A stretch of DNA of 64,000 nucleotides. Origin: Verrucomicrobiota bacterium (GTDB taxonomy: Bacteria > Verrucomicrobiota > Verrucomicrobiia > Limisphaerales > CANJXF01). The position numbers and the translations under genes were made by a program. Under the pieces are notes generated by a model. That model was not told the DNA's origin, did not search any database, and was given only the letters and a program-made list of their open reading frames with translations. The stretch is from positions 47,882 to 111,881 of the forward strand of contig JBBQRQ010000002.1 in the NCBI GenBank assembly GCA_038214755.1, written 5' to 3'. Positions within the stretch are counted from its first letter, which is position 1, and each line of letters starts with the position of its first letter. Shown in pieces: positions 31,266-44,792 of the stretch.

Positions 31266-32660
31266 TCAGTCTTCAGCGCGCTCGCCATGCGGCGCCATCT
31301 TCACGAGCTTCGGATCGAATTGGCCGATCGTTTCCACCAAGTCGGATTGCGCAGCCATGACCGTATGAATGTCTTTGTAAACCATCGGCGCTTCGTCAAG
31401 GCCAGCGGAAATGAGCGTCACTCCGCGTTCGCGCAGAAATTGATTCACTGCTTTCCAATTGAAAGTTTGCGACGCGCGAGTGCGGCTCATGACACGTCCC
31501 GCTCCATGCGAAGCAGAATGCAAAGATTCAGCATTCCCTTTTCCACGAACAACAAATCCGGGGGTCGCCATTGAGCCAGGGATTATTCCCAACACACCCG
31601 TGCCCGCTGGCGTGGCACCTTTGCGATGCACCACGACCTCACGCTCTACGCCCTCGATAACGTGCTTTTCTTTCCAGGCAAAGTTGTGGTGGTTTTCCAG
31701 ATCGAGCAAGACCTGCGCGCCGAGATTTTCCGCGATGTGTTTATGAATGCAGGCGTGATTCGCGGCGGCGTATTGTCCCATCAATTCCATCGCGTTCCAA
31801 TACTCCTGCCCTTCCTGCGAATCGAGCGACAACCACGCGAGCCGCTTCAATTCGCTCGGCAAATCGGGAAACTGGCTGAACGCGATCTTGCTGTAGTAAT
31901 CGCAGACCGACGCGCCTGTGCCGCGACTCCCGCTGTGTGACAGCAACGCCACATAAGTGCCCGGTTCCAATTCGTTGATTTTCGAGTGCGCCGTGAATAG
32001 ACCAAACTCGACAAAATGATTGCCGCTGCCGCTCGTGCCGAGTTGCGACCACGCGCGGTCTTTGTTTTGTTTCGTAATTGGACTGACCGACCAGTCCGCG
32101 TCGAGCACGCCGTGGTGGCGACGCTCCTTGAAATTCGCGCCGATGCCGAAGCGCGTCTCCGCTTCGATGGCGCGCGTGAGCCGGTCCTGCTTGCGTTCCA
32201 GATCGCGCAACGGCAGATCGAGCACCGTCATCTTCATGCGGCACGCGATGTCCACACCAACGGCGTAAGGAATCACCGCGTTCTCGGTGGCCAGCACGCC
32301 GCCGATGGGCAGGCCGTAGCCCACATGCGCGTCCGGCATGAGCGCGCCCGCCACCGAGATCGGCAACAGACACGCCTTTTCCATCTGCATCACCGCCTCA
32401 TGTTCCAAACCTTCGCCCCATTGCCGATACTTCACCGGCTCGGCGCGCGGCGGCGGTGGCGCATGGAGCAACGCCTTCGCAAGCTCGCCGCGCAATGCGT
32501 CATCCACGAACGCCGCCGGATTGGCGACAATGGCCGCGACATCTTCGTGCAACCGCGACTTGTCGCCGCCGCCGAGGATAAACTTGCAAACAAAATCCGT
32601 CGCGCGCCGGGTGGCCTCGCCGAGCGGAACTCCCGTTCGTAAAAAATCTTTCGCATTCAT
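31266..32660 (-). CDS. rtcB: RNA-splicing ligase RtcB
   Basis: MPDAHVGYGLPIGGV, GSGNHF, HSGSRGTG, NHHNFAW and HGAGR motifs. Confidence 0.92.
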   Translation of the reverse strand: MNAKDFLRTGVPLGEATRRATDFVCKFILGGGDKSRLHEDVAAIVANPAAFVDDALRGELAKALLHAPPPPRAEPVKYRQWGEGLEHEAVMQMEKACLLPISVAGALMPDAHVGYGLPIGGVLATENAVIPYAVGVDIACRMKMTVLDLPLRDLERKQDRLTRAIEAETRFGIGANFKERRHHGVLDADWSVSPITKQNKDRAWSQLGTSGSGNHFVEFGLFTAHSKINELEPGTYVALLSHSGSRGTGASVCDYYSKIAFSQFPDLPSELKRLAWLSLDSQEGQEYWNAMELMGQYAAANHACIHKHIAENLGAQVLLDLENHHNFAWKEKHVIEGVEREVVVHRKGATPAGTGVLGIIPGSMATPGFVVRGKGNAESLHSASHGAGRVMSRTRASQTFNWKAVNQFLRERGVTLISAGLDEAPMVYKDIHTVMAAQSDLVETIGQFDPKLVKMAPHGERAED

Positions 32661-32694
32661 AACAAAATTGCTTCTCCCGGTTTGAGGCGGAAAC

Positions 32695-33987
32695 TCACTT
32701 TTGCGCCTTGCTCAACTCCGATTCGATCTCCTCGACCGTCGGCAGGCTGCCCTTCAGATTCTTCGGCAGGGATTCGACGAGCTTGGTCTGCCATTGCGCG
32801 ACGCCGATGGGCTTCTTCAAATCGCGCAACGCATATTCCACCGTCAAGTTGTCGCGCTCCTTGCACAGCAACAGTCCGATAGACGGCTTGTCATCTGCGT
32901 GACGCAACTGATCGTCCACGGCGGAGAGATAGAAATTCATTTTACCGGCGAACTCCGGCTCAAAGGCTTTCATCTTCAAATCGATCACCACGTAGCTGCG
33001 CAACCGCAGATGATAGAACAACAGGTCGAGATAATAATCCTGCCCGCCAATTTCCAGGTGAAACTGCCGTCCCACGAACGCAAACCCGACGCCGAGCTGA
33101 AGCAGGAACTTCTGGATGTGATCCAGCAAACCCAATTCAAGGTCGCGCTCATGCGCGTCGGCGCGGAGCGTGAGGAAATCGAAGGTGTAAGGGTCTTTGA
33201 GCGTCTGCTCGGCCAGATCGGATTGCACCGGCGGCAACGTGCGCTGGAAGTTCGTAACCGCCTTGCCTTCGCGTTTGTGCAATTGCGCTTCGATGTGGTG
33301 CGTCAGCACCGCGCGTGACCAGCCATGCTCGACGGCTTTGCGCGCATACCAAAGGCGGTCAGCGGCGGATTCGAGTTTTTGCAGCAACACAATGTTGTGA
33401 CCCCACGGCAGCGAAGCCATTGGTTCGGGCGGAGCGGCAAATTCTGTTGCAGGCTGTGACAGTTTTTGCGCCGGGAATTCTCTTACAGCTTGTGAGAGAA
33501 TCTGCGGTTCGGATTCTCCAAGTCGCTGAGGAAGAATCGCCTCCTCCGGCAATTGTCGCACAAGCTGTGCGACAATTGCCGAACCCGACTGAGCAGCCGC
33601 CTTTTTCCCGCCGCCCGGTAATTGTCGCACAGGTTGTGCGACAATTGCGTTCGCCGGTGCATAACCCAGGAAGAACGCCCTCATGCGATAAAGATTCTTG
33701 CGAGAAAATCCTGCCATCTCGGGGAACTCCTCGGTCAAGTCATGCGAGAGGCGATCAAGCACGCGGTCGCCCCATTTGTGCGTTTTCTGTTGTTCAACGA
33801 TGGCTCTGCCAATGTCCCAATACAACGCGATCAGCTCGCGATTGACGGAAACCGCCGCGCGAAGTTGCGACGCGCGGACGCGCATCTTGAGGTCGGCGAG
33901 AATGGTGGCGTAATCGGCAGGCAATGCGCTGGACGCTTTGCCGCCGATGGCTTTTGCCAAGCTGATGGTTGATTTCTTTTTCGCCAT
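32695..33987 (-). CDS. yhcG: PDDEXK nuclease domain protein (YhcG/DUF1016 family)
   Basis: LPWGHNIVLL, then YYLDLLFYHLRLRSYVVIDLKMKAFEPEFAGKMNFYLSAVDD (PD-ExK core). Confidence 0.85.
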   Translation of the reverse strand: MAKKKSTISLAKAIGGKASSALPADYATILADLKMRVRASQLRAAVSVNRELIALYWDIGRAIVEQQKTHKWGDRVLDRLSHDLTEEFPEMAGFSRKNLYRMRAFFLGYAPANAIVAQPVRQLPGGGKKAAAQSGSAIVAQLVRQLPEEAILPQRLGESEPQILSQAVREFPAQKLSQPATEFAAPPEPMASLPWGHNIVLLQKLESAADRLWYARKAVEHGWSRAVLTHHIEAQLHKREGKAVTNFQRTLPPVQSDLAEQTLKDPYTFDFLTLRADAHERDLELGLLDHIQKFLLQLGVGFAFVGRQFHLEIGGQDYYLDLLFYHLRLRSYVVIDLKMKAFEPEFAGKMNFYLSAVDDQLRHADDKPSIGLLLCKERDNLTVEYALRDLKKPIGVAQWQTKLVESLPKNLKGSLPTVEEIESELSKAQK

Positions 33988-34151
33988 ACCCAGAGTTAGC
34001 CGGTGATTCCTGGTTGATGATGTTAAAGGTGGATTGGGTTGAAAAGCCTTTCCAAACGGGCAGCTTCACCCAGCGGCACACCGAGAGGAATAAAATCTTT
34101 AGTGTTCATGAAAAATGCGTTTCAACAGGAACAGTGCCACCACCACCAAGC

Positions 34152-35285
34152 TCACGCTATCGCTTGGCGCAATTCGCCCGGCGAAACAATTGAAAGTTTC
34201 AGCCTATCCTGAACCCGCTCATACGCCGGGCCGTTCAATGGGCTGACCACATAGTTTTTCCCTTTTGGATACTGTTCGCGAAACGCCGCCAGCCCGCGCG
34301 TTTCAAACGCATCCGCTTTCCATTTGCATTCGATGGCGTCAACGGCATCGCGGCCGCGCGGCACGACGAAGTCCACTTCGCGCTGCTGTTTGTCGCGCCA
34401 GAAATGAATCTTCGGCAGATTGGCGGCGATAAGGGTGTCCAGCACGAGATGCTCCCACAACACGCCGCAATCCTCCGTTCGCAAATGATCCCAGCCGCGC
34501 GCGTGGCAGACCAACCCCGTGTCAAAACCGAACACCTTCGGCTGCGCCACGATCTCCCGCCGCCCGCCTGCTGAAAACGGACGCACCAAATGCGCCACAT
34601 GCGTGATCTGATAAACCTCCAGCCAGTTCGTGACGGCAGGCCGGCTGATCTGGCTTTCGGCGGCCAGCTTCGTCACGTCCAGCATCCCGCCGCTTTGGCG
34701 CATCAACAATTCCAGCACGCGCAGAAAACCGGCGCGTTTCTCCAGCCGGAAAAGCTCCTGGACGTCGCGCGCGAAATAGGAATCCTGCCACTCGGCGTAG
34801 AATTCTGGATTGTGTTTCTCCGCGAGCAGCGCGGGCGGCAATCCCCCGCGCAACAAACGTTCCCGCAAATCCGTCACGCCGAACGCCGCCAATTCCTCGT
34901 GCAACACCGGCACCAGCTGCACCACCCGCTTGCGCCCCGTCAGGCTGTCGCGGAACTTTTGCGTGGCCGCGAGCGTGGACGAACCCGTCGCCAGGATTTT
35001 CAATTTGGGAAAATCATCCGCGCCAATCTTCAACAGCCGGCTTGGATCGGGAAGCTGATGCACCTCGTCGAACACCACCAGCCGCTTTTTCACGGAACGG
35101 AAAAAACTCTCCGGATCGCGCAGCCGTTCCGCCACGCTGGGCAGGTCGCAGTTGAGAAACTCCGCGTCGGGAAAGCTCTGCGCCAGCACCGTCTTGCCCG
35201 CGCGCCGCGGCCCGCTCAGCCAGACAATGGACGCCTGTTTCCACGCGGCGACGAGCCGTTCAGTCCAAAAAGGTCGGTCAATCAT
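34152..35285 (-). CDS. AAA ATPase with DUF4143 C-terminal domain
   Basis: Walker A GPRRAGKT, Walker B VVFDEVH, and C-terminus REVDFVVPRGRDAVDAIECKW. Confidence 0.8.
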   Translation of the reverse strand: MIDRPFWTERLVAAWKQASIVWLSGPRRAGKTVLAQSFPDAEFLNCDLPSVAERLRDPESFFRSVKKRLVVFDEVHQLPDPSRLLKIGADDFPKLKILATGSSTLAATQKFRDSLTGRKRVVQLVPVLHEELAAFGVTDLRERLLRGGLPPALLAEKHNPEFYAEWQDSYFARDVQELFRLEKRAGFLRVLELLMRQSGGMLDVTKLAAESQISRPAVTNWLEVYQITHVAHLVRPFSAGGRREIVAQPKVFGFDTGLVCHARGWDHLRTEDCGVLWEHLVLDTLIAANLPKIHFWRDKQQREVDFVVPRGRDAVDAIECKWKADAFETRGLAAFREQYPKGKNYVVSPLNGPAYERVQDRLKLSIVSPGELRQAIA

Positions 35286-35420
35286 GGCAGGCAGACTTTA
35301 CGTTTAGACGGCTAAAAGTAAAGTCTGGATTCGGCGCGCGGCGTTTACGCCGCTTCAACTCCCGGCTGTTGAGCGCCGCAGAGATGCCTCACGATGTCGT
35401 GCGGTGAAGCGGACTGAACT

Positions 35421-35653
35421 TTGAATCCCAACGGGATTCCAGCGTTCAGCCAAAGGTTGCGACGAAGGAGCTATCTTGGGTTCGCATCCCAAAATATCCA
35501 CAACCCCAACGCGGGTTGCATCGTTTTCATTTATCCGTTTCTGATTCACGGGCGGACGCAACTCCTTCAGAGTTGAAATTCTTTTTTCACGTTTTCCCAG
35601 GGTAGCTCGTTCCTCGCAACCTTGGGCTGACTGACGAAATCCCGTTGGGATTT
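35421..35653. repeat. MITE-like palindromic element, copy 1
   Basis: The ends are aatcccaacgggatt / aatcccgttgggatt. Subterminal arms are ggttgcgacgaaggagctatc / gtagctcgttcctcgcaacc. Internal hairpins are caaccccaacgcgggttg and caactccttcagagttg. It is homologous to 44444-44716. Confidence 0.8.
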
Positions 35654-35664
35654 TCAAAAGCATG

Positions 35665-35762
35665 AGCCGTCGCGCGCCGCGTGGCTTCACCCGGCGGCAC
35701 GTCTTGGCGCGCCGAAGTTGGACGCAAGGGGGGACGAGACGGAGAAAATCTTTGGCGTTCAT
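35665..35762 (-). pseudogene. Remnant of an rtcB-like 5' end
   Basis: atgaacgccaaagattttctccgt (MNAKDFLR) and gaagccacgcggcgcgcgacgg (EATRRAT) match rtcB codons 1-8 and 15-21 at 32660. The two matches are out of frame with each other, and the remnant is cut off by the MITE. Confidence 0.6.
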
Positions 35763-35832
35763 GTCAAACAAGGGTCGTCCTCCCATTCGAGAACTTGCGC
35801 GTTCGTCGCCCCCGTCATGTCAGCCCACGTTT

Positions 35833-36573
35833 TCACAACCAAATGTCCGTTCCTGCGGCGAGCCAGTTCGGAACCATCTTCTGATGCTGCCAGTGTTCGC
35901 TTTGCTGCACCTTCTCCACAAACTCCGGACGGACCAGTTTGGCGCGGCCTGTCACATAGCCGTCGGCCTCACTGCGAACGTAAAGTCCTTCCATCAAATT
36001 GTCGGTCTTGCCCGTGATTGGATTTTCAAAAGCGCTGTCAAACGCCGATGGCACGATGAGCGATTCCAGTTCGTCTGCCTTGGCGCGACCGCGATGAACG
36101 ATAGGCACAGTATGAAGGCCGGTTCCGTCCAACATTCGCTGACGAGCGGCGAGGTCGAGAAACTGCCCGGCGTCCTTGTCGTAAATGTCGAACTCGAAAA
36201 AGTAATGCGGTAGCTTGCAATAGTGGACGGAGTGCTTCGCGTAGAGCCATTCGCCGTAGAGGATAAACTGATTACCGAGCATTCCTTCGAGGACTGGGCG
36301 CTTCACCGAAGTCCACTGCTTGAAGAGATCATATTGCGGATGCATGCCCTCGGTAATTTCGTGACCACGGCATTGCAGCACCATGCGTCCACGGGACGTG
36401 AAATGAATTCCAACGTTCGTGCCATCAATCTTCTCCGCCACAATCAACGAAGGGTCCGCGATCAACCTCTCAGATTCTTTTTGGCCAAGATGTTTGTCGC
36501 CAGCAGTTCCCTTCGACCCGAACAGATGCGGTGTGCGTGGGTATTTGATAAAATCATCGCGGGTCGCTCCCAT
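35833..36573 (-). CDS. ATP-dependent RNA ligase family protein (nucleotidyltransferase KxDGxN)
   Basis: KYPRTPHL, then motif [14 protein letters not shown], plus [12 protein letters not shown] and FFEFDIY motifs. Confidence 0.65.
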
Positions 36574-36639
36574 AGCAGTAATCGAGTTTGGTTGAATTAA
36601 GTTGGGAGAGCGAGCTTTGACGCCCGCTCTCCCGTTGTT

Positions 36640-36735
36640 TCATTCGTTCAAGAACAGTTTCCACTCCGTGATGCCGTGGGCGTTGCGGAGGAGCGCCGTG
36701 ACCGGCAGTTTCCCGCCTTGCGCGACCGTGGTACG
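36640..36735 (-). pseudogene. 3'-terminal remnant of a second HNH endonuclease gene
   Basis: The minus strand reads ..GKLPVTALLRNAHGITEWKLFLNE*. This is about 85% nt identical to the 3' end of the HNH ORF at 38065-38160 (..ELPVTALIRNAHGIAEWKLFLNA*). Confidence 0.65.
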
Positions 36736-36738
36736 TTT

Positions 36739-37986
36739 TCACAGACAAGACCACGGGAGCGCCGTCACCTTGTCGTGTATTTGCAGCGGCTGACGGCAGC
36801 GGCAAATGATGTAGGCGTGCTTCGCGTGTTTCGGATGTTCACCCAAGAACGTCAGGAGATGACGCGCGTCGGAGAGCGTCGGGTTCTCCGTCCATTTCAC
36901 TTCAATCGGCGTCAGGCCGCCTTCGCGCTGGATGATGAAGTCCACTTCCGCGCCGTCATGGGTGCGGAGGTAATGCAACGTGCCCGTGCCAAGGTATTGC
37001 AGGCGTTTCCAAAGTTCGACTCCCACCCATTGCTCGAAGAGCGGGCCGGGATTCGCCAGCACCACATCGGTGTTGGGCCGCAACCCGGCGGCGGCGTGGC
37101 GGATGCCGAGGTCGAAGAACAGGAAGCGGTCGGTGGAGAGCAGATTTTTTCGCGGGCTGCCGGAATATGCTGGCAGACGGAAGCCGAGAAACATGTCTTC
37201 CAAAAGCTGGTAGTGGCTCTTGATGGTCGGCACGGACAGGCCTACGTCCTTGGAAATTTTGTGGTAGTTCACCATCTGCCCGGACTCGACGGCGGCGAAG
37301 CGCAGGAAGCGCACGAACGCGGGCCAGTCCTTCACCATCGCTTCGCGCCGCATTTCCTCCTCCAGATGAAGTTGCGTGTAGGCGTGCAACATCTCGGCGC
37401 GATGCGCTTCGTCAGCGGTGACGACGCCCGGGAGTTCGCCGAAGGCGAGTCGTGTGAGCAGGTCGGCGCGCGGAAATGGTTTCGTCGGGCGCTTCCCGTC
37501 CGGCCAGTCGAGCGGCAACGGCGGCGGGGCGTCAAACTCAGCGGGCGATTCGGCAGGCGGGCGTTCAGTCAGCGTGAGCGGAAAAAGGCGGTGCAAAAAG
37601 CTGCGGCCCGGCAGAAGGTTCGCGCCGGTCTGCCGCAACTTGCGCGCGGAACTGCCGCAGAGGATGAACCGCCAGCGTTTCTTGTCTCCGTCGTAAAGAT
37701 GCTGCACGGCGTCGAACAGCGCGGGCACGTTTTGCGCCTCGTCCACGAACACCCACGCGCCGCCTTCGCGCTGTCGCAGGCCACGGCAAAGTGCGATGAG
37801 GTCGTCCGGGTGGTTGAGATATTGCGCCCGCACCTTCGGAATGGAGAGGTCAATGCGCGCGGCGTGCGGCGGCAGGAGATTCTGAATGAGGGTGGATTTG
37901 CCCGTCTGCCGCGCGCCGAACACGATATGCACATACGGGGCGGCGAACTTCTTTCGCCAAAGGGATTCGGGCCAGCGGGTGAACAC
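36739..37986 (-). CDS. AAA ATPase with DUF4143 C-terminal domain (second paralog)
   Basis: Walker A GARQTGKST, Walker B VFVDEAQ, and C-terminus AEVDFIIQREGGLTPIEVKW. GTG start. Confidence 0.8.
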   Translation of the reverse strand: MFTRWPESLWRKKFAAPYVHIVFGARQTGKSTLIQNLLPPHAARIDLSIPKVRAQYLNHPDDLIALCRGLRQREGGAWVFVDEAQNVPALFDAVQHLYDGDKKRWRFILCGSSARKLRQTGANLLPGRSFLHRLFPLTLTERPPAESPAEFDAPPPLPLDWPDGKRPTKPFPRADLLTRLAFGELPGVVTADEAHRAEMLHAYTQLHLEEEMRREAMVKDWPAFVRFLRFAAVESGQMVNYHKISKDVGLSVPTIKSHYQLLEDMFLGFRLPAYSGSPRKNLLSTDRFLFFDLGIRHAAAGLRPNTDVVLANPGPLFEQWVGVELWKRLQYLGTGTLHYLRTHDGAEVDFIIQREGGLTPIEVKWTENPTLSDARHLLTFLGEHPKHAKHAYIICRCRQPLQIHDKVTALPWSCL

Positions 37987-38064
37987 GGCTTGGTTTTAAT
38001 CGCCTGTTATTGAAAGTCAACTTTCAATAACAGGCGTTTAATGAAAACGCGATTCGCGCGCACC

Positions 38065-38367
38065 TCAGGCATTGAGGAACAGTTTCCACTCCGCGATGCC
38101 GTGCGCGTTTCGGATGAGCGCCGTCACCGGCAGTTCCTTCGGCGCGCGCGGAACGTTGAGCAATTTCAATACGGCTTCGTGCGGCAGGCGGTTGCCCTTT
38201 TTCGAGTTCACCGCTTTGTTCGCCCAGACGCAATTCTCCCACGCATCTTTTCCGCCGCGCGAACGTGGCAGGATATGATCGATACTGCCTTCCTCCGGCT
38301 TCAGAATTTTGCCGGTGTATTGGACCAGCCTCCCGGAATTGAATGGTGCGGCAACCGGGAGTTGCAC
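38065..38367 (-). pseudogene. HNH endonuclease, probably 5'-truncated
   Basis: HNH core DHILPRSRGGKDAWENCVWANKAVNSKKGN. The ORF is only 100 aa with no ATG (forced GTG), and its 5' end overlaps the tRNA-like minihelix (38344-38398). Confidence 0.6.
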
Positions 38368-38398
38368 CCGGACGAACGGAAGACTTGCAGGTCGCCGC
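38344..38398 (-). ncRNA. tRNA-like minihelix (acceptor stem plus T-arm plus CCA)
   Basis: The minus strand reads GCGGCGA-(20 nt)-CCGGG TGCAACT CCCGG-TTGCCGC-A-CCA. There is no D arm, and the anticodon-like hairpin (GAC CTGCAA GTC) is degenerate. Confidence 0.35.
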
Positions 38399-38466
38399 CT
38401 GGGCTACTCGGCTAATAGGACATCAATCGTTACTCTCGGAAGTAATGATCGCGCCGACTTCCGTCA

Positions 38467-38712
38467 TAGCAGCCAGACTGCAATCAACAATTTTTGAAAG
38501 CTGCGTCCTGAGCCGCACGAACAAAGATCGTTGCGTCCGAGCTTTTCATGAAGCTCCTTAGTTCCATAAACGATGCGGGAACCTTTTTTCAAGCGAGTTT
38601 CCGATGGATACCCTTTGCGACGTTTGCTGGTGATCTCGAAAAAACGGGCTGTCTTGATGAACCGATTGATTTCCCTTACGGCCTCCGGCTTAGGGGTTGT
38701 GGTTGTGAATAA
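38467..38712 (-). pseudogene. C-terminal fragment of a SEC-C-motif protein
   Basis: Open frame without a start: ...[52 protein letters not shown]. GRNDxCxCGSGxxF is the SEC-C metal-binding motif, with the terminal Cys pair lost. Confidence 0.5.
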
Positions 38713-38890
38713 CTAATGCTTGAAATTTTTTCCTTCTAACGCGACAACAGAACTGCGCGACGAACAGCTTTGATCCAAATACCGGCTTTGAGATCTTTGT
38801 GCCGGGGCGTGGATTGCTCCTCGGAGCAGTATTCCGCTTGCGGAAGCGCCTATCTCCTTTGAGCGTTCGCCGCGCATTTACTTTTTGAAT

Positions 38891-38967
38891 TGGTCAGGAA
38901 GCCGGCATTTGCACGCGGACCGTCTCCTTCACAGGGAGAGATGCTGCTAATTACACCACGATCCTGA
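38891..38967 (-). ncRNA. Degenerate tRNA-like module (anticodon loop CTGTGAA, His-like) with encoded CCA
   Basis: About 75% identical to the module at 39065-39138. Anticodon stem TCTCC/GGAGA, T-loop TGCAAAT, eroded T stem, and an acceptor out of register by 1 nt. Confidence 0.35.
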
Positions 38968-38972
38968 TTTGA

Positions 38973-39057
38973 GCGCGGAACGCAGAACGCGGAACGCGGA
39001 AAGAAAAACTCGCGCGCGATTGATCTGATTTCCACGTTCCGCATTCCGAGTTCCGCG
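38973..39057. repeat. Long imperfect hairpin whose arms are four tandem heptamers (GCGGAAC type)
   Basis: gcggaac gcagaac gcggaac gcggaaa, a loop of about 25 nt, then tttccac gttccgc attccga gttccgc. Confidence 0.8.
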
Positions 39058-39064
39058 TTTGAAA

Positions 39065-39138
39065 TGCTCCCACGTGGACTTGCACCACGAACCTTCTCCT
39101 TCGCAGGGAGACATGCAGTTCTATTACACCTTGAGAGC
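39065..39138 (-). ncRNA. tRNA-like cloverleaf (anticodon GCG, Arg-like) with a non-canonical T-loop
   Basis: 74 nt: acceptor GCTCTCA/TGGGAGC, D stem GTGT/GCAT, D loop AATAGAACT (no GG), anticodon stem TCTCC/GGAGA with loop CTGCGAA, V loop AGGTT, T stem CGTGG/CCACG, T loop TGCAAGT. CCA is not encoded. Confidence 0.4.
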
Positions 39139-39143
39139 GGAAA

Positions 39144-39235
39144 GAAATTTACGATTTACGAATGACGATTTACGCGGGCAAATCCAAATCGTCAGCCGAC
39201 TCGTAAATCGTAAATCCAAAATCGTAAATCGAAAT
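39144..39235. repeat. Long imperfect hairpin whose arms are tandem heptamers (ATTTACG type)
   Basis: atttacg atttacg aatgacg atttacg, a loop of about 27 nt, then cgtaaat cgtaaat ccaaaat cgtaaat. Confidence 0.8.
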
Positions 39236-39263
39236 GGTATCCGTGGCCGGACTTGCACCGGCT
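39236..39263 (-). other. tRNA 3'-fragment-like sequence (T-arm, acceptor 3' strand, CCA)
   Basis: The minus strand reads GCCGG TGCAAGT CCGGC CACGGAT A CCA. No matching 5' half is present. Confidence 0.35.
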
Positions 39264-39379
39264 AGGTGGTGGAGATGAAGCGGTCGCGGAAACGTTTTAA
39301 AACGTCGCAAATAAAAGGAGCGGCATGACGGTGAATGAGTTGTTGATATTTTTCATAGCGGGAAAGTGGCCGGAACCCT

Positions 39380-39446
39380 CCACCGTTTCGAGTCTTTTCG
39401 TCGGCCTGCGCTACGCTCCGGCCTCCTCCAAGACTCGAAACGGTGG
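39380..39446. repeat. Hairpin with 17-nt arms
   Basis: ccaccgtttcgagtctt pairs with aagactcgaaacggtgg across a 33-nt GC-rich loop. Confidence 0.75.
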
Positions 39447-39457
39447 GAAGAATAAAT

Positions 39458-39498
39458 CACTGAAGGTTTGATCGCACACACTGAAGGTTTGATCGCAC
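39458..39498. repeat. Tandem direct repeat, two copies of 20 nt
   Basis: cactgaaggtttgatcgcac occurs twice, separated by 1 nt. Confidence 0.85.
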
Positions 39499-39541
39499 CG
39501 CGACAGCTACAAATCTGAGTCGTGGCGACGGCGCGCTGCTC

Positions 39542-39612
39542 GTAGCCGCCGACGTGAGGAGGCGGATTCCGATCGGAAAACCACGAAACCGCCTCCTCAC
39601 GTCAGCGGCTAC
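39542..39612. repeat. REPIN-like inverted REP pair (GTAG..GACGTGAGGAGG family)
   Basis: gtagccgccgacgtgaggaggcgg pairs with ccgcctcctcacgtcagcggctac. It is related to the pair at 3521-3606. Confidence 0.85.
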
Positions 39613-39659
39613 AACTTATGAAATTTTGATGGAGCGCGAACCAGATTTTTCCCGGAGAT

Positions 39660-40058
39660 TTATTCCTTTTTCTTTTTGAAAAATCTTGGGCCAGCCTCGC
39701 CTTGTCGTTGTTGAACTTTGAGTTGGCCAAGAATGGAGACCCAACCGATAAAAATTTTATGCCATTGATTTTCCATGCTGCGGATGACGCCATCGGCCAT
39801 TTCGCTGAGGTAGCGAATGGAGGGCGCGCTCGAGATCAGGGCGAGGACGTCTTCCTTGGTCGGGGAGGGGCATTCCACGGAAGCGAGGATCAACTCCATT
39901 TCCTGAACGATGACGCTTTTGACTTCGAGGAATTGGATCTCGTCTTCGCTGCTGAATTTTTTTGAGCGGGCGAGGTTGACGAAATAATTAAATTGCTTGA
40001 GGCATTCCAAATAATTTTCCAACTGCAGGATGAGTTGTTCGTGGTCTTGGTGGCGCAT
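39660..40058 (-). CDS. Hypothetical protein
   Basis: ATG at 40058. It is the last gene of the response-regulator operon and has a C-terminal basic tail. Confidence 0.5.
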   Translation of the reverse strand: MRHQDHEQLILQLENYLECLKQFNYFVNLARSKKFSSEDEIQFLEVKSVIVQEMELILASVECPSPTKEDVLALISSAPSIRYLSEMADGVIRSMENQWHKIFIGWVSILGQLKVQQRQGEAGPRFFKKKKE

Positions 40059-44340: not shown

Positions 44341-44792
44341 GCGGGGTGTGATTTAAACTGGCGGTCACTTGTAGCGCAGGATTGCATTCTGCCGTAGCGC
44401 AGGTTTTCAACCCTTGTCATTACCCACAATTCCTCGGCGCCTTTTCAATCCCAACGGGATTGAAATCAATCAGCCCCGCGTTGCGAGGAACGAGCTACGC
44501 TGAGTCATCGTGCAAACAAATCCTCAACCCGGAACGGGTTGCATAAAATCCCCTCTTACATCGCTACGAAATCGAATTTGATGAACGGAAGATTGGGATT
44601 AATTTCGCGATTTGATTCAACTCTTTCAGAGTTGATGCACTTTTATTGACATCCCCCAGCGTAGCTCGTTCCTCGCAACGCTGGGCTAAGTGATCCCAAT
44701 CCTTTCAGGATTGAAGAAACACGGGCTGCGATGTGGGTAATGACAAGGATGCAATCCTGCGCTACGTGACCGCCACTTGAACTCACACCCCG
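44341..44792. repeat. Nested palindrome: outer arms of about 88 nt (left, with a 24-nt insertion) and 61 nt (right) enclosing MITE-like copy 2 (44444-44716)
   Basis: The outer arm cggggtgtgatttaaactggcggtcacttgtagcgcaggattgcat...ccttgtcattacccaca pairs with tgtgggtaatgacaaggatgcaatcctgcgctacgtgaccgccacttgaactcacaccccg. The inner element is homologous to 35421-35653 in the same orientation. Confidence 0.8.

Follow-up and report, generated by a model that had tools for sequence, protein, structure and literature searches.

An apparently eroded tRNA-array/RNA-repair locus of a Verrucomicrobiota bacterium with nuclease-family and ATPase genes embedded between duplicated gene ends

The stretch of Verrucomicrobiota DNA analysed here (64,000 nt of contig JBBQRQ010000002.1; in the following, the window) holds a row of six minus-strand genes between positions 31266 and 38367, each scoring well in excess of its Pfam threshold (Pfam is the source of all domain assignments for which no other is named). 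In the order of transcription they encode an HNH endonuclease, a DUF4143 ATPase (DUF4143a), an RNA-ligase-family protein (PF09414), a second DUF4143 ATPase (DUF4143b), a YhcG/DUF1016 protein and the RNA ligase RtcB. The initial annotation, made from the DNA sequence, had read the row as an RNA damage/repair or phage-defence/counter-defence locus that combines two ligase chemistries with nucleases and ATPases; Pfam, repeat search and tblastn find every gene and element that it listed in place, the genes all on the minus strand (Table 1). We find that DUF4143a, DUF4143b and YhcG came in later, as separate insertions with duplicated ends of the target genes at their borders, and that the interval receiving them appears to be an eroded copy of a Verrucomicrobial tRNA-array/RNA-repair island. 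The G+C content of 31266-38367 is 58%, against 51-53% in the flanks. At third codon positions, G+C is 0.79 in DUF4143a and 0.75 in DUF4143b, compared with 0.63-0.70 in the ligase and RtcB genes and 0.57-0.64 in flanking genes; the codon composition of both DUF4143 genes is foreign. About 180 related loci, designated by L-numbers, were examined in all. Co-occurrence was counted in 160 loci, 80 centred on the ligase (80 species-level genomes of Verrucomicrobiota and Planctomycetota) and 80 centred on RtcB.

The insertions are recognized by their scars. DUF4143a is flanked by two copies of the last 71 nt of the HNH gene: the displaced copy at 36640-36710 and the HNH 3´ end at 38065-38135 share 86% identity (direct repeat D1), and the displaced copy matches HNH residues 180-202 in tblastn (expect value, E, 4e-8). 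Window positions 36710-35778 align to the relative L001 in one block, so the displaced HNH end continues without a break into the native region upstream of the ligase. The other two insertions are bounded by 5´ ends of rtcB. Remnant 1 retains the native upstream junction, the end of the HD-Pnk gene, and has an internal insert of ~38 nt. Remnant 2 is 89% identical to nt 1-47 of the L008 rtcB over 34109-34063 (blastn). When the three rtcB 5´ copies are aligned, neither remnant 2 nor the live rtcB has a leader related to the native junction. The segments follow each other as native junction and stub 1, MITE-like element (MITE, miniature inverted-repeat transposable element) and DUF4143b, leader and stub 2, YhcG, and finally leader and rtcB. 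The MITE-like element has one further, diverged copy in the window (44443-44693, 76-79% identical); a 143-aa open reading frame (ORF) at 35355-35786, a read-through of remnant 1 and the MITE-like element, matches no Pfam family.

Table 1. Features of the locus in order of transcription (window coordinates).
Feature	Position	Strand	Basis or remark
tRNA(-like), anticodon GCG (Arg)	39066-39138	-	Rfam tRNA model, 48.4 bits
tRNA-His(GTG)-like	38891-38966	-	ARAGORN; Rfam tRNA model weak, 19.2 bits
SEC-C-motif small protein gene, degenerate	38464-38640	-	tblastn with L001 SEC-C
HNH endonuclease gene, 5´-truncated	38065-38442	-	Pfam HNH_4/HNH_5/HNH
DUF4143a cassette, 1.32 kb	36734-38054	-	palindrome 37996-38041 and AAA_14-DUF4143 gene 36739-37986
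Displaced HNH 3´ end	36640-36713	-	last ~23 codons and stop
ATP-dependent RNA-ligase-family protein, 246 aa, intact	35833-36573	-	Pfam PF09414, 117 bits
HD-Pnk, first 20 codons, overlapping ligase stop	35783-35842	-	tblastn with L001 HD-Pnk
rtcB 5´ remnant 1	~35660-35775	-	repeat D4, blastn, alignment
MITE-like inverted-repeat element	35424-35652	.	57-nt arms, 82% complementary
DUF4143b, AAA_14-DUF4143 ATPase	34152-35285	-	Pfam; PD-(D/E)xK-type C-terminus
rtcB 5´ remnant 2	~34055-34109	-	between DUF4143b and YhcG; left edge of YhcG unit
YhcG/DUF1016 PD-(D/E)xK nuclease-family protein	32695-33987	-	Pfam YhcG_C and DUF1016_N
RtcB RNA ligase, 464 aa, intact	31266-32660	-	Pfam, 292.9 bits vs cut-off 27

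The PADLOC and profile searches proposed in the initial annotation assign both DUF4143 proteins to the candidate defence family PDC-S01 (E 7.5e-65 for DUF4143a, 1.8e-54 for DUF4143b) and YhcG to PDC-S02 (E 1.3e-146). DUF4143a and DUF4143b are only ~24% identical to each other (tblastn). Their description as STAND-like ATPases finds no support, as Pfam gives AAA_14, weakly AAA_22, and no STAND family at E up to 0.01. NCBIfam adds no names for the ligase, YhcG or the DUF4143 proteins, and a scan of 31-39.4 kb for promoters and terminators gave counts not above those of shuffled controls.

Both DUF4143a and YhcG exist as units elsewhere. A DUF4143a cassette with equal edges occurs in L169 (85.7% identical), L167 (83.7%), L176 (81.8%) and L177 (80.8%). 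Between the window and these four contexts, homology begins a few bases before the palindrome and ends a few bases past the stop codon; all aligned copies have one and the same palindrome core, AAACGCCTGTTATTGAAAGT-N-GACTTTCAATAAC, although the gene is only ~84% identical. In L169 the cassette stands behind Hen1 in two tandem copies, with 300-nt repeats that include the Hen1 3´ end (98% and 72%), and in L176 it lies between two rtcB 5´ copies. In L167 it is part of a defence island (AbiEii, nSTAND, kinase/TIR, methylase and helicase), in L177 it adjoins an HTH/M78 pair and a type IIG enzyme (a restriction-modification, RM, system), and in L170 the neighbourhood is unrelated. DUF4143a homologues reach 92% identity, above the level of the core genes, and homologues at ~65% are named for Deltaproteobacteria and Dongiaceae. 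Among viral contigs neither DUF4143 gene has a close relative and YhcG has a single match at 62%; there is therefore no sign of phage-borne cassettes. The duplication in L169 (1432-4849) has a period of 1559 nt, and each cassette copy is followed by a 75-aa ORF, the duplicated Hen1 C-terminus; the tandem duplication could be real or an assembly effect. The first 6-10 nt of rtcB reappear in the last bases of the cassette, ..CT[A/G]TGAACACG, also where it lies at HNH or Hen1 (window 36734-36745, L169 2985-2996, L176 5385-5397). There are hints in the sequence that the DUF4143a cassette lineage may first have sat directly in front of rtcB.

In L172, L173-L175 and L182-L183, YhcG homologues of 72-79% identity follow an rtcB 5´ fragment, and the homologue in L176, found via DUF4143a, is placed likewise. 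The left junction of the window's YhcG is common to L172, L173 and L176; in L182 the rtcB fragment before YhcG is longer (~93 nt). The gene upstream of the rtcB fragment differs in each YhcG locus. In L179 a 71% homologue has a type III RM system as its neighbour and no rtcB. On a Deinococcus plasmid (L185) YhcG is embedded after hsdM, a case broken by insertion sequence (IS) elements and uninformative on scars. Within the YhcG gene of the window, 33471-33648 consists of three tandem units of 69-75 nt, which are also inverted repeats (D2/I2); the peptide IVAQ-VRQLP that they encode is thus repeated, immediately ahead of the LPWGHN motif, which is conserved. The homologues vary in length from 366 to 525 aa, most of them being 377-430 aa long.

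These observations identify the region in front of rtcB as a recurrent insertion site. A metagenome scan with RtcB found HNH within 5 kb upstream in 11 of 17 loci (at least 80% identity and enough upstream sequence). The slot between HNH and rtcB is occupied in almost every locus by a different co-oriented gene, encoding 149 to 1270 aa and mostly lacking a Pfam or PADLOC match; a few products have SEC-C, DUF5677 or HEAT repeats. A Phd/PIN toxin-antitoxin pair stands between an rtcB 5´ stub and rtcB in L148 and L110. The array in L172 reads SEC-C protein, stub, MFS transporter, stub, toxin-antitoxin pair, stub, YhcG and truncated rtcB, with four rtcB 5´ fragments separating four cargoes. Every rtcB fragment, whatever the locus, has its first base exactly at the ATG and its last between nt ~48 and ~109. 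Other genes have left 5´ stubs too: HD-Pnk (L012, and twice in L029), the ligase (L019), a second RtcB (L104) and HNH (L103). Several slot orphans of L087-L153 show, by eye, PD-(D/E)xK-like or DUF3800-like motifs, and one ends in SEC-C. To judge from their sequences, the slot orphans appear to be a pool of uncharacterised conflict-type genes.

Two rival explanations of the stubs were considered. In the first, the HNH-ligase-RtcB operon was once duplicated in tandem and then reduced by deletions, with DUF4143 and YhcG as bystanders. The presence of stubs from several operon genes would agree with this, and an internal ligase fragment in L038 looks like the relic of a second copy. However, each stub in the window is a gene end exactly at a cassette edge and, across loci, each rtcB fragment begins at the start codon, the leaders of remnant 2 and the live rtcB bear no relation to the native junction, equal cassette-plus-stub junctions occur in other genomes behind different upstream genes, and the window has no second ligase or rtcB body; we regard a tandem duplication as very improbable. 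In the second, the contig would be a chimera of reads from related strains joined at repeats. The window does come from a 137-kb metagenome-type contig, and repeats can mislead assemblers, as might have happened with the 98% duplication in L169. The repeats in the window, however, are short (47-110 nt) and 77-89% identical, too diverged for collapse or false joining, and the YhcG junction is shared by L172, L173-L175 and L176, and the rtcB fragment before YhcG by L182-L183, from independent samples and assemblies. We give an assembly artefact hardly any credence.

The genes surrounding the cassettes are best understood from their relatives, in which the layout is, in summary, tRNA array, Ro60, SEC-C, tRNA array, HNH, variable slot and RtcB. 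The full loci L001 and L008 comprise an RtcB of 376 aa, tRNA genes, a 327-aa protein, SEC-C and Ro60/TROVE, followed by (DUF5677), tRNA genes, an HNH protein of 202 aa, the ligase, HD-Pnk and the 464-aa RtcB; orthologous layouts were found in L001, L002, L005, L008, L014 and L015. The ligase/HD-Pnk pair fills the variable slot in some genomes only. When the L001 proteins are compared with the window by tblastn, the ligase and RtcB match over their full length, and HNH, HD-Pnk and SEC-C as stubs only. TROVE/Ro60, which is present in L001, L005, L008, L095 and L107, has no tblastn match anywhere in the 64-kb window. The decay noted in the initial annotation is thus borne out, with HNH truncated, HD-Pnk lost and stubs of gene ends in place. 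The HNH gene (202 codons in relatives) lacks its first ~82 codons, tblastn matching residues 83-201; an in-frame stop stands at the 5´ edge of this homology, and the ORF at 38065-38367 retains the HNH core. The SEC-C relic matches residues 13-60 of the L001 protein at 79% (38640-38497), has no ATG and has lost the final Cys pair of the zinc motif. The SEC-C ORF shares its reading frame with the HNH stub, which itself carries the stop just named.

The tRNA-like modules reported next to the island are likewise real, and correspond to members of the tRNA arrays of relatives. The relatives' loci have 14-18 tRNA genes by ARAGORN and more by Rfam; in the window no such long tandem run was found, only one ARAGORN tRNA and one further Rfam match. 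The Arg(GCG) gene shares 85-88% identity with tRNA genes of the L001 and L005 arrays, and the His(GTG)-like gene is 86.7% identical to L014 3551-3632. Because the same order, Arg(GCG) to His(GTG) before SEC-C, is seen in L014 and L095, the two genes are taken as the last members of the array. We rejected the idea of an island at a tRNA attachment site, the tRNA-like genes belonging to the ancestral array. Reading them as YrlA was rejected as well for the window, where no Y RNA model (YrlA or Yrn1) matched 38300-39800 at E up to 10. Four long near-perfect hairpins with arms of 28-32 nt (38975-39050, 39147-39229, 39380-39446 and 39542-39612) are found upstream of the tRNA-like pair and in the gap within it, and short tandem motifs such as CGTAAATCG make up some of them; a 431-nt stretch containing the first two (38870-39300) folds with z = -4.9.

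Arrays were located in L001 (1-750, 2100-2610 and 7760-9250), L008 (27-770 and 5130-6910) and L014 (1935-3630 and 6570-8320), and also in L095 and L107. Their tRNAs represent many anticodons, and many have the T-loop GGTGCAAATCC, with G replacing the universal U55/pseudouridine; they may constitute a spare or decoy set of tRNAs. Y RNA models match the relatives below threshold, at 39-50 bits against gathering scores of 69-80. Beside the Ro60 gene the Deinococcus Y RNA model scores 48-50 bits and the YrlA model 39-43 bits (L001 2348-2482, 2884-2996 and 3861-3970; L008 473-607, 902-1015 and 2010-2124). The RNAs at these sites are probably divergent Verrucomicrobial Y RNAs. A nucleotidyltransferase of the PolyA_pol/CCA-adding type lies directly behind RtcB in L173 (8840-10213), and L014 (612-1151) has what appears, by eye, to be a C-terminal fragment of one; such a gene may provide the island with a further function in tRNA-end repair.

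RtcB itself is intact. An alignment with P. horikoshii RtcB shows conservation of the metal-ligand motifs and of the histidine that is guanylylated (HGAGR), with MPDAHVGYG, GSGNHF, HSGSRG, HHN and SHGAGRV each in place, and the protein is 85% identical to its L001 orthologue. RtcA cyclase and the RtcR sigma-54 activator were not found among the island proteins and the eight neighbouring proteins scanned. The ATP-dependent ligase has EKIDGTN as motif I and retains all columns that are invariant among 23 homologues. Its homologues number thousands; the best 120 are all from Verrucomicrobiota, 78-87% identical and 246-266 aa long, nearly all exactly 246. Across the 80 species-level genomes the ligase is 67-87% identical. 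A single-sequence query against PDB sequences gave no match, and a profile gave marginal ones to Rnl3 (Pab1020) and Rnl5 (Naegleria) at E 0.01-0.1. An AlphaFold2 model from a 22-sequence alignment was too poor for a fold search, with a mean predicted local distance difference test score of 42.6. By sequence comparison the protein appears not to be assignable to a named Rnl class, nor to be close to any solved structure.

The partner of the ligase is HD-Pnk, which directly follows it, usually overlapping, in 71 of the 78 loci with enough sequence. In the window the HD-Pnk stub matches residues 1-20 at 85% (E 4e-6) and no second tblastn match lies within the 64 kb, so that the end-healing partner of the ATP-ligase appears to be gone from the locus. 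A different arrangement is seen in L038 (700-5400), where a Hen1-like gene with a frameshift takes the place of HD-Pnk behind the ligase, and is followed by a DUF4143a relic, a VapBC pair and the 208-nt internal ligase fragment mentioned above, which is 90% identical to the live gene.

The initial proposal can, in its strong form, be weighed against these data: a single system, for damage and repair or for defence and counter-defence, would comprise the nucleases (YhcG, DUF4143 and HNH) together with both ligases. On this view the nucleases would cut RNA or DNA when phage attack or stress occurs, and the resulting self-damage would be undone by RtcB or the ATP-ligase. All genes are co-oriented, YhcG lies directly upstream of rtcB in L173, and in L176 YhcG, DUF4143a and rtcB follow one another, with overlapping stop and start codons. 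The rtcB slot also collects conflict-type genes (PIN toxins, nuclease-like orphans and HEAT proteins), and translational stress in Anabaena induces rtcB together with a long tRNA array and VapC toxins (PMC8421152). On the other hand, the neighbourhood analysis shows that the nucleases and ATPases are not conserved: YhcG occurs in none of the 160 ligase- or RtcB-centred loci, and DUF4143 in two, both among the 80 ligase-centred ones, with neither family in the 80 RtcB-centred loci. Their distribution is patchy, the closest RtcB orthologues (86-88%) lacking both families and more distant ones (78-83%) having them. Moreover, the DUF4143a cassette is found in defence islands and beside RM genes with no ligase nearby, each gene has its own insertion scars, the locus is decaying through the truncation of HNH and loss of HD-Pnk, and no RNase activity has been shown for the PD-(D/E)xK proteins of these families (PMC3424549). 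We consider a single system unlikely. The HNH/ligase(HD-Pnk)/RtcB backbone of the RNA-repair interpretation stands, and the DUF4143 ATPases and YhcG drop out as members of it. The two ligase chemistries do meet here, but an RtcB of the window type lies within 10 kb of the ligase in just 4 of the 80 species-level genomes, and HNH is upstream of the ligase in 5 of 66 ligase-centred loci.

The interleaving is thus better read as accretion of cassettes at an rtcB hot spot than as a co-evolved machine, because the nucleases are non-conserved and cassette-bounded. We hold it probable, with moderate confidence, that an eroded repair island took up three cassettes, including the present roles and the mobility outlined here. 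In the history that we propose, the ancestral order was tRNA genes, a second RtcB, Y-RNA-like RNAs, SEC-C, Ro60/TROVE, further tRNA genes, HNH, the variable slot and RtcB. One deletion would have fused SEC-C to HNH at codon ~83, removing Ro60 and the second tRNA block, and another would have removed HD-Pnk but for 20 codons. Three foreign one-gene cassettes would then have been inserted in the orientation of the operon: DUF4143a at the last 71 nt of HNH, DUF4143b (with the MITE) at the first ~50-65 nt of rtcB, and YhcG at the same ~50-65 nt. At each insertion a new copy of the gene end would restore the reading frame, the old end staying behind as a stub. At present the intact RtcB could still seal RNA breaks with 3´-P/5´-OH ends, the intact ATP-ligase would be without a local end-healing enzyme, and the three cassette proteins would act independently as defence-type or selfish nucleases. 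With less certainty, mobility may depend on recombination anchored in the highly conserved ends of repair genes. This could occur through Campbell-type integration, in which a cassette circle carrying a gene-end fragment enters by a single crossover, or through homology-facilitated illegitimate recombination. Anchoring by homology would explain both the diverged repeats, as donor versus recipient sequence, and the pile-up at rtcB.

Several observations weigh against this history. The comparison loci are mostly metagenome contigs, and HD-Pnk could be located elsewhere in the genome, outside the window. The stop codon of DUF4143a overlaps the rtcB start in L176, and every placed YhcG homologue of at least 72% identity is found at an rtcB 5´ fragment (window, L172, L173, L176 and L182); both findings would also fit a working partnership. 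Since YhcG homologues of at least 72% and one DUF4143a homologue recur next to rtcB, the sequences leave room for a soft functional link of these two genes to rtcB. Several rtcB fragments end within nt ~57-66, which could point to a site-specific process. We infer the mechanism of insertion, as no recombinase or integrase domain was found in the island or the scanned neighbours. An integron was rejected, the same proteins including no IntI-type integrase and the boundaries being rtcB or HNH fragments rather than attC; by inspection, the DUF4143a palindrome has GTT at the 5´ side and AAC at the 3´ side, the reverse of attC.

A bolder reading is that in this Verrucomicrobial lineage the first ~50-110 nt of rtcB are a capture site for an integron-like but recombinase-free array of conflict genes, with the 3´ ends of HNH and Hen1 as lesser sites, and that the array is located there because its co-expression with the RNA ligase and the spare tRNAs would buffer the toxicity of the cargo. 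The cargo would be one-gene cassettes (PD-(D/E)xK nucleases, PIN toxins and orphan genes), each arriving through recombination at the conserved gene end and leaving a stub. We think this a long shot. If true, it would provide a mechanism for the embedding of defence genes in operons and would explain in functional terms why nucleases are linked to RNA repair.

Cassette accretion as proposed here has consequences beyond this locus. The scars are a readable trace of single embedded defence-candidate genes entering operons without breaking them, and those of the DUF4143a cassette recur at three different target genes. If they are general, a systematic search for insertion events and their cargo could make use of them. 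A tidy row of co-oriented genes can arise by accretion and decay, not design. The small PF09414 ligase is among the most conserved proteins of Planctomycetota and Verrucomicrobiota and is nearly always paired with HD-Pnk; one clade unites the ligase, RtcB, Ro60 and a long tRNA array, and thus offers concrete loci in which to seek substrates of the ligase.

The kind of locus is known; for the insertion scars and the cassette arrays next to rtcB we found no description in the searched literature. Orphan toxin/immunity arrays of Rhs and contact-dependent inhibition (CDI) systems and integron cassette arrays are likewise co-oriented arrays of cargo. In Rhs/CDI a short fragment of the main gene precedes each cargo, left when a new module recombines in. 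The rtcB 5´ fragments before the cargoes in L172, L176 and the window resemble these, but they are 5´ ends of the gene for a non-polymorphic enzyme. From integron arrays the window differs in having neither an integrase nor attC-type sites.

The ligase/HD-Pnk pair resembles a cluster of Runella slithyformis in gene arrangement. There the ligase ORF shares its 3´ end with the start of a gene encoding an N-terminal HD phosphoesterase and a C-terminal P-loop kinase (Munir and Shuman; PMC6097658), an overlap also seen in 71 of 78 relatives of the window ligase and left in the window as the 20-codon stub. In contrast to Runella, HD-Pnk is deleted in the window, and the genes accompanying the pair in Runella are Tpt1 and an MTase-HIT gene, not HNH and RtcB. 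The Runella ligase adenylylates and sealed none of the substrates tried (PMC6097658), and "RNA ligase" is for this reason used here as a family name rather than a demonstrated activity. The relatives further resemble the Salmonella rsr-yrlBA-rtcBA and other Ro60/Y RNA loci (PMC7790460, PMC4201824) in clustering Ro60/TROVE, Y-RNA-like RNAs that have tRNA-like parts, and RtcB; the window, however, is without TROVE, and RtcA and RtcR are missing from the proteins scanned. Comparable, too, are the L-arrays, long tRNA arrays with a conserved HNH gene and a co-regulated rtcB, which occur in phyla including Verrucomicrobia and Planctomycetes (PMC8421152). The 14-18 tandem tRNA genes of the relatives similarly lie beside HNH and RtcB, but the window keeps two tRNA(-like) genes, and its HNH follows the array whereas the cyanobacterial HNH precedes it.

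The embedded genes belong to families that both carry PD-(D/E)xK-type domains (PMC3424549). PDC-S01 (AAA_14-DUF4143) and PDC-S02 (YhcG/DUF1016) were nominated by "guilt by embedding" and are among 145 PDC systems that the authors of that preprint themselves call phage-defence candidates (bioRxiv 10.1101/2024.01.29.577857). The host operon in the window is one of RNA repair and not RM, BREX or DISARM, and duplicated ends of host genes, such as form the scars in the window, are not mentioned in the passages of the preprint that were consulted. The likeness lies in the embedding itself, the candidates in the window being placed, co-oriented, inside another multi-gene operon.

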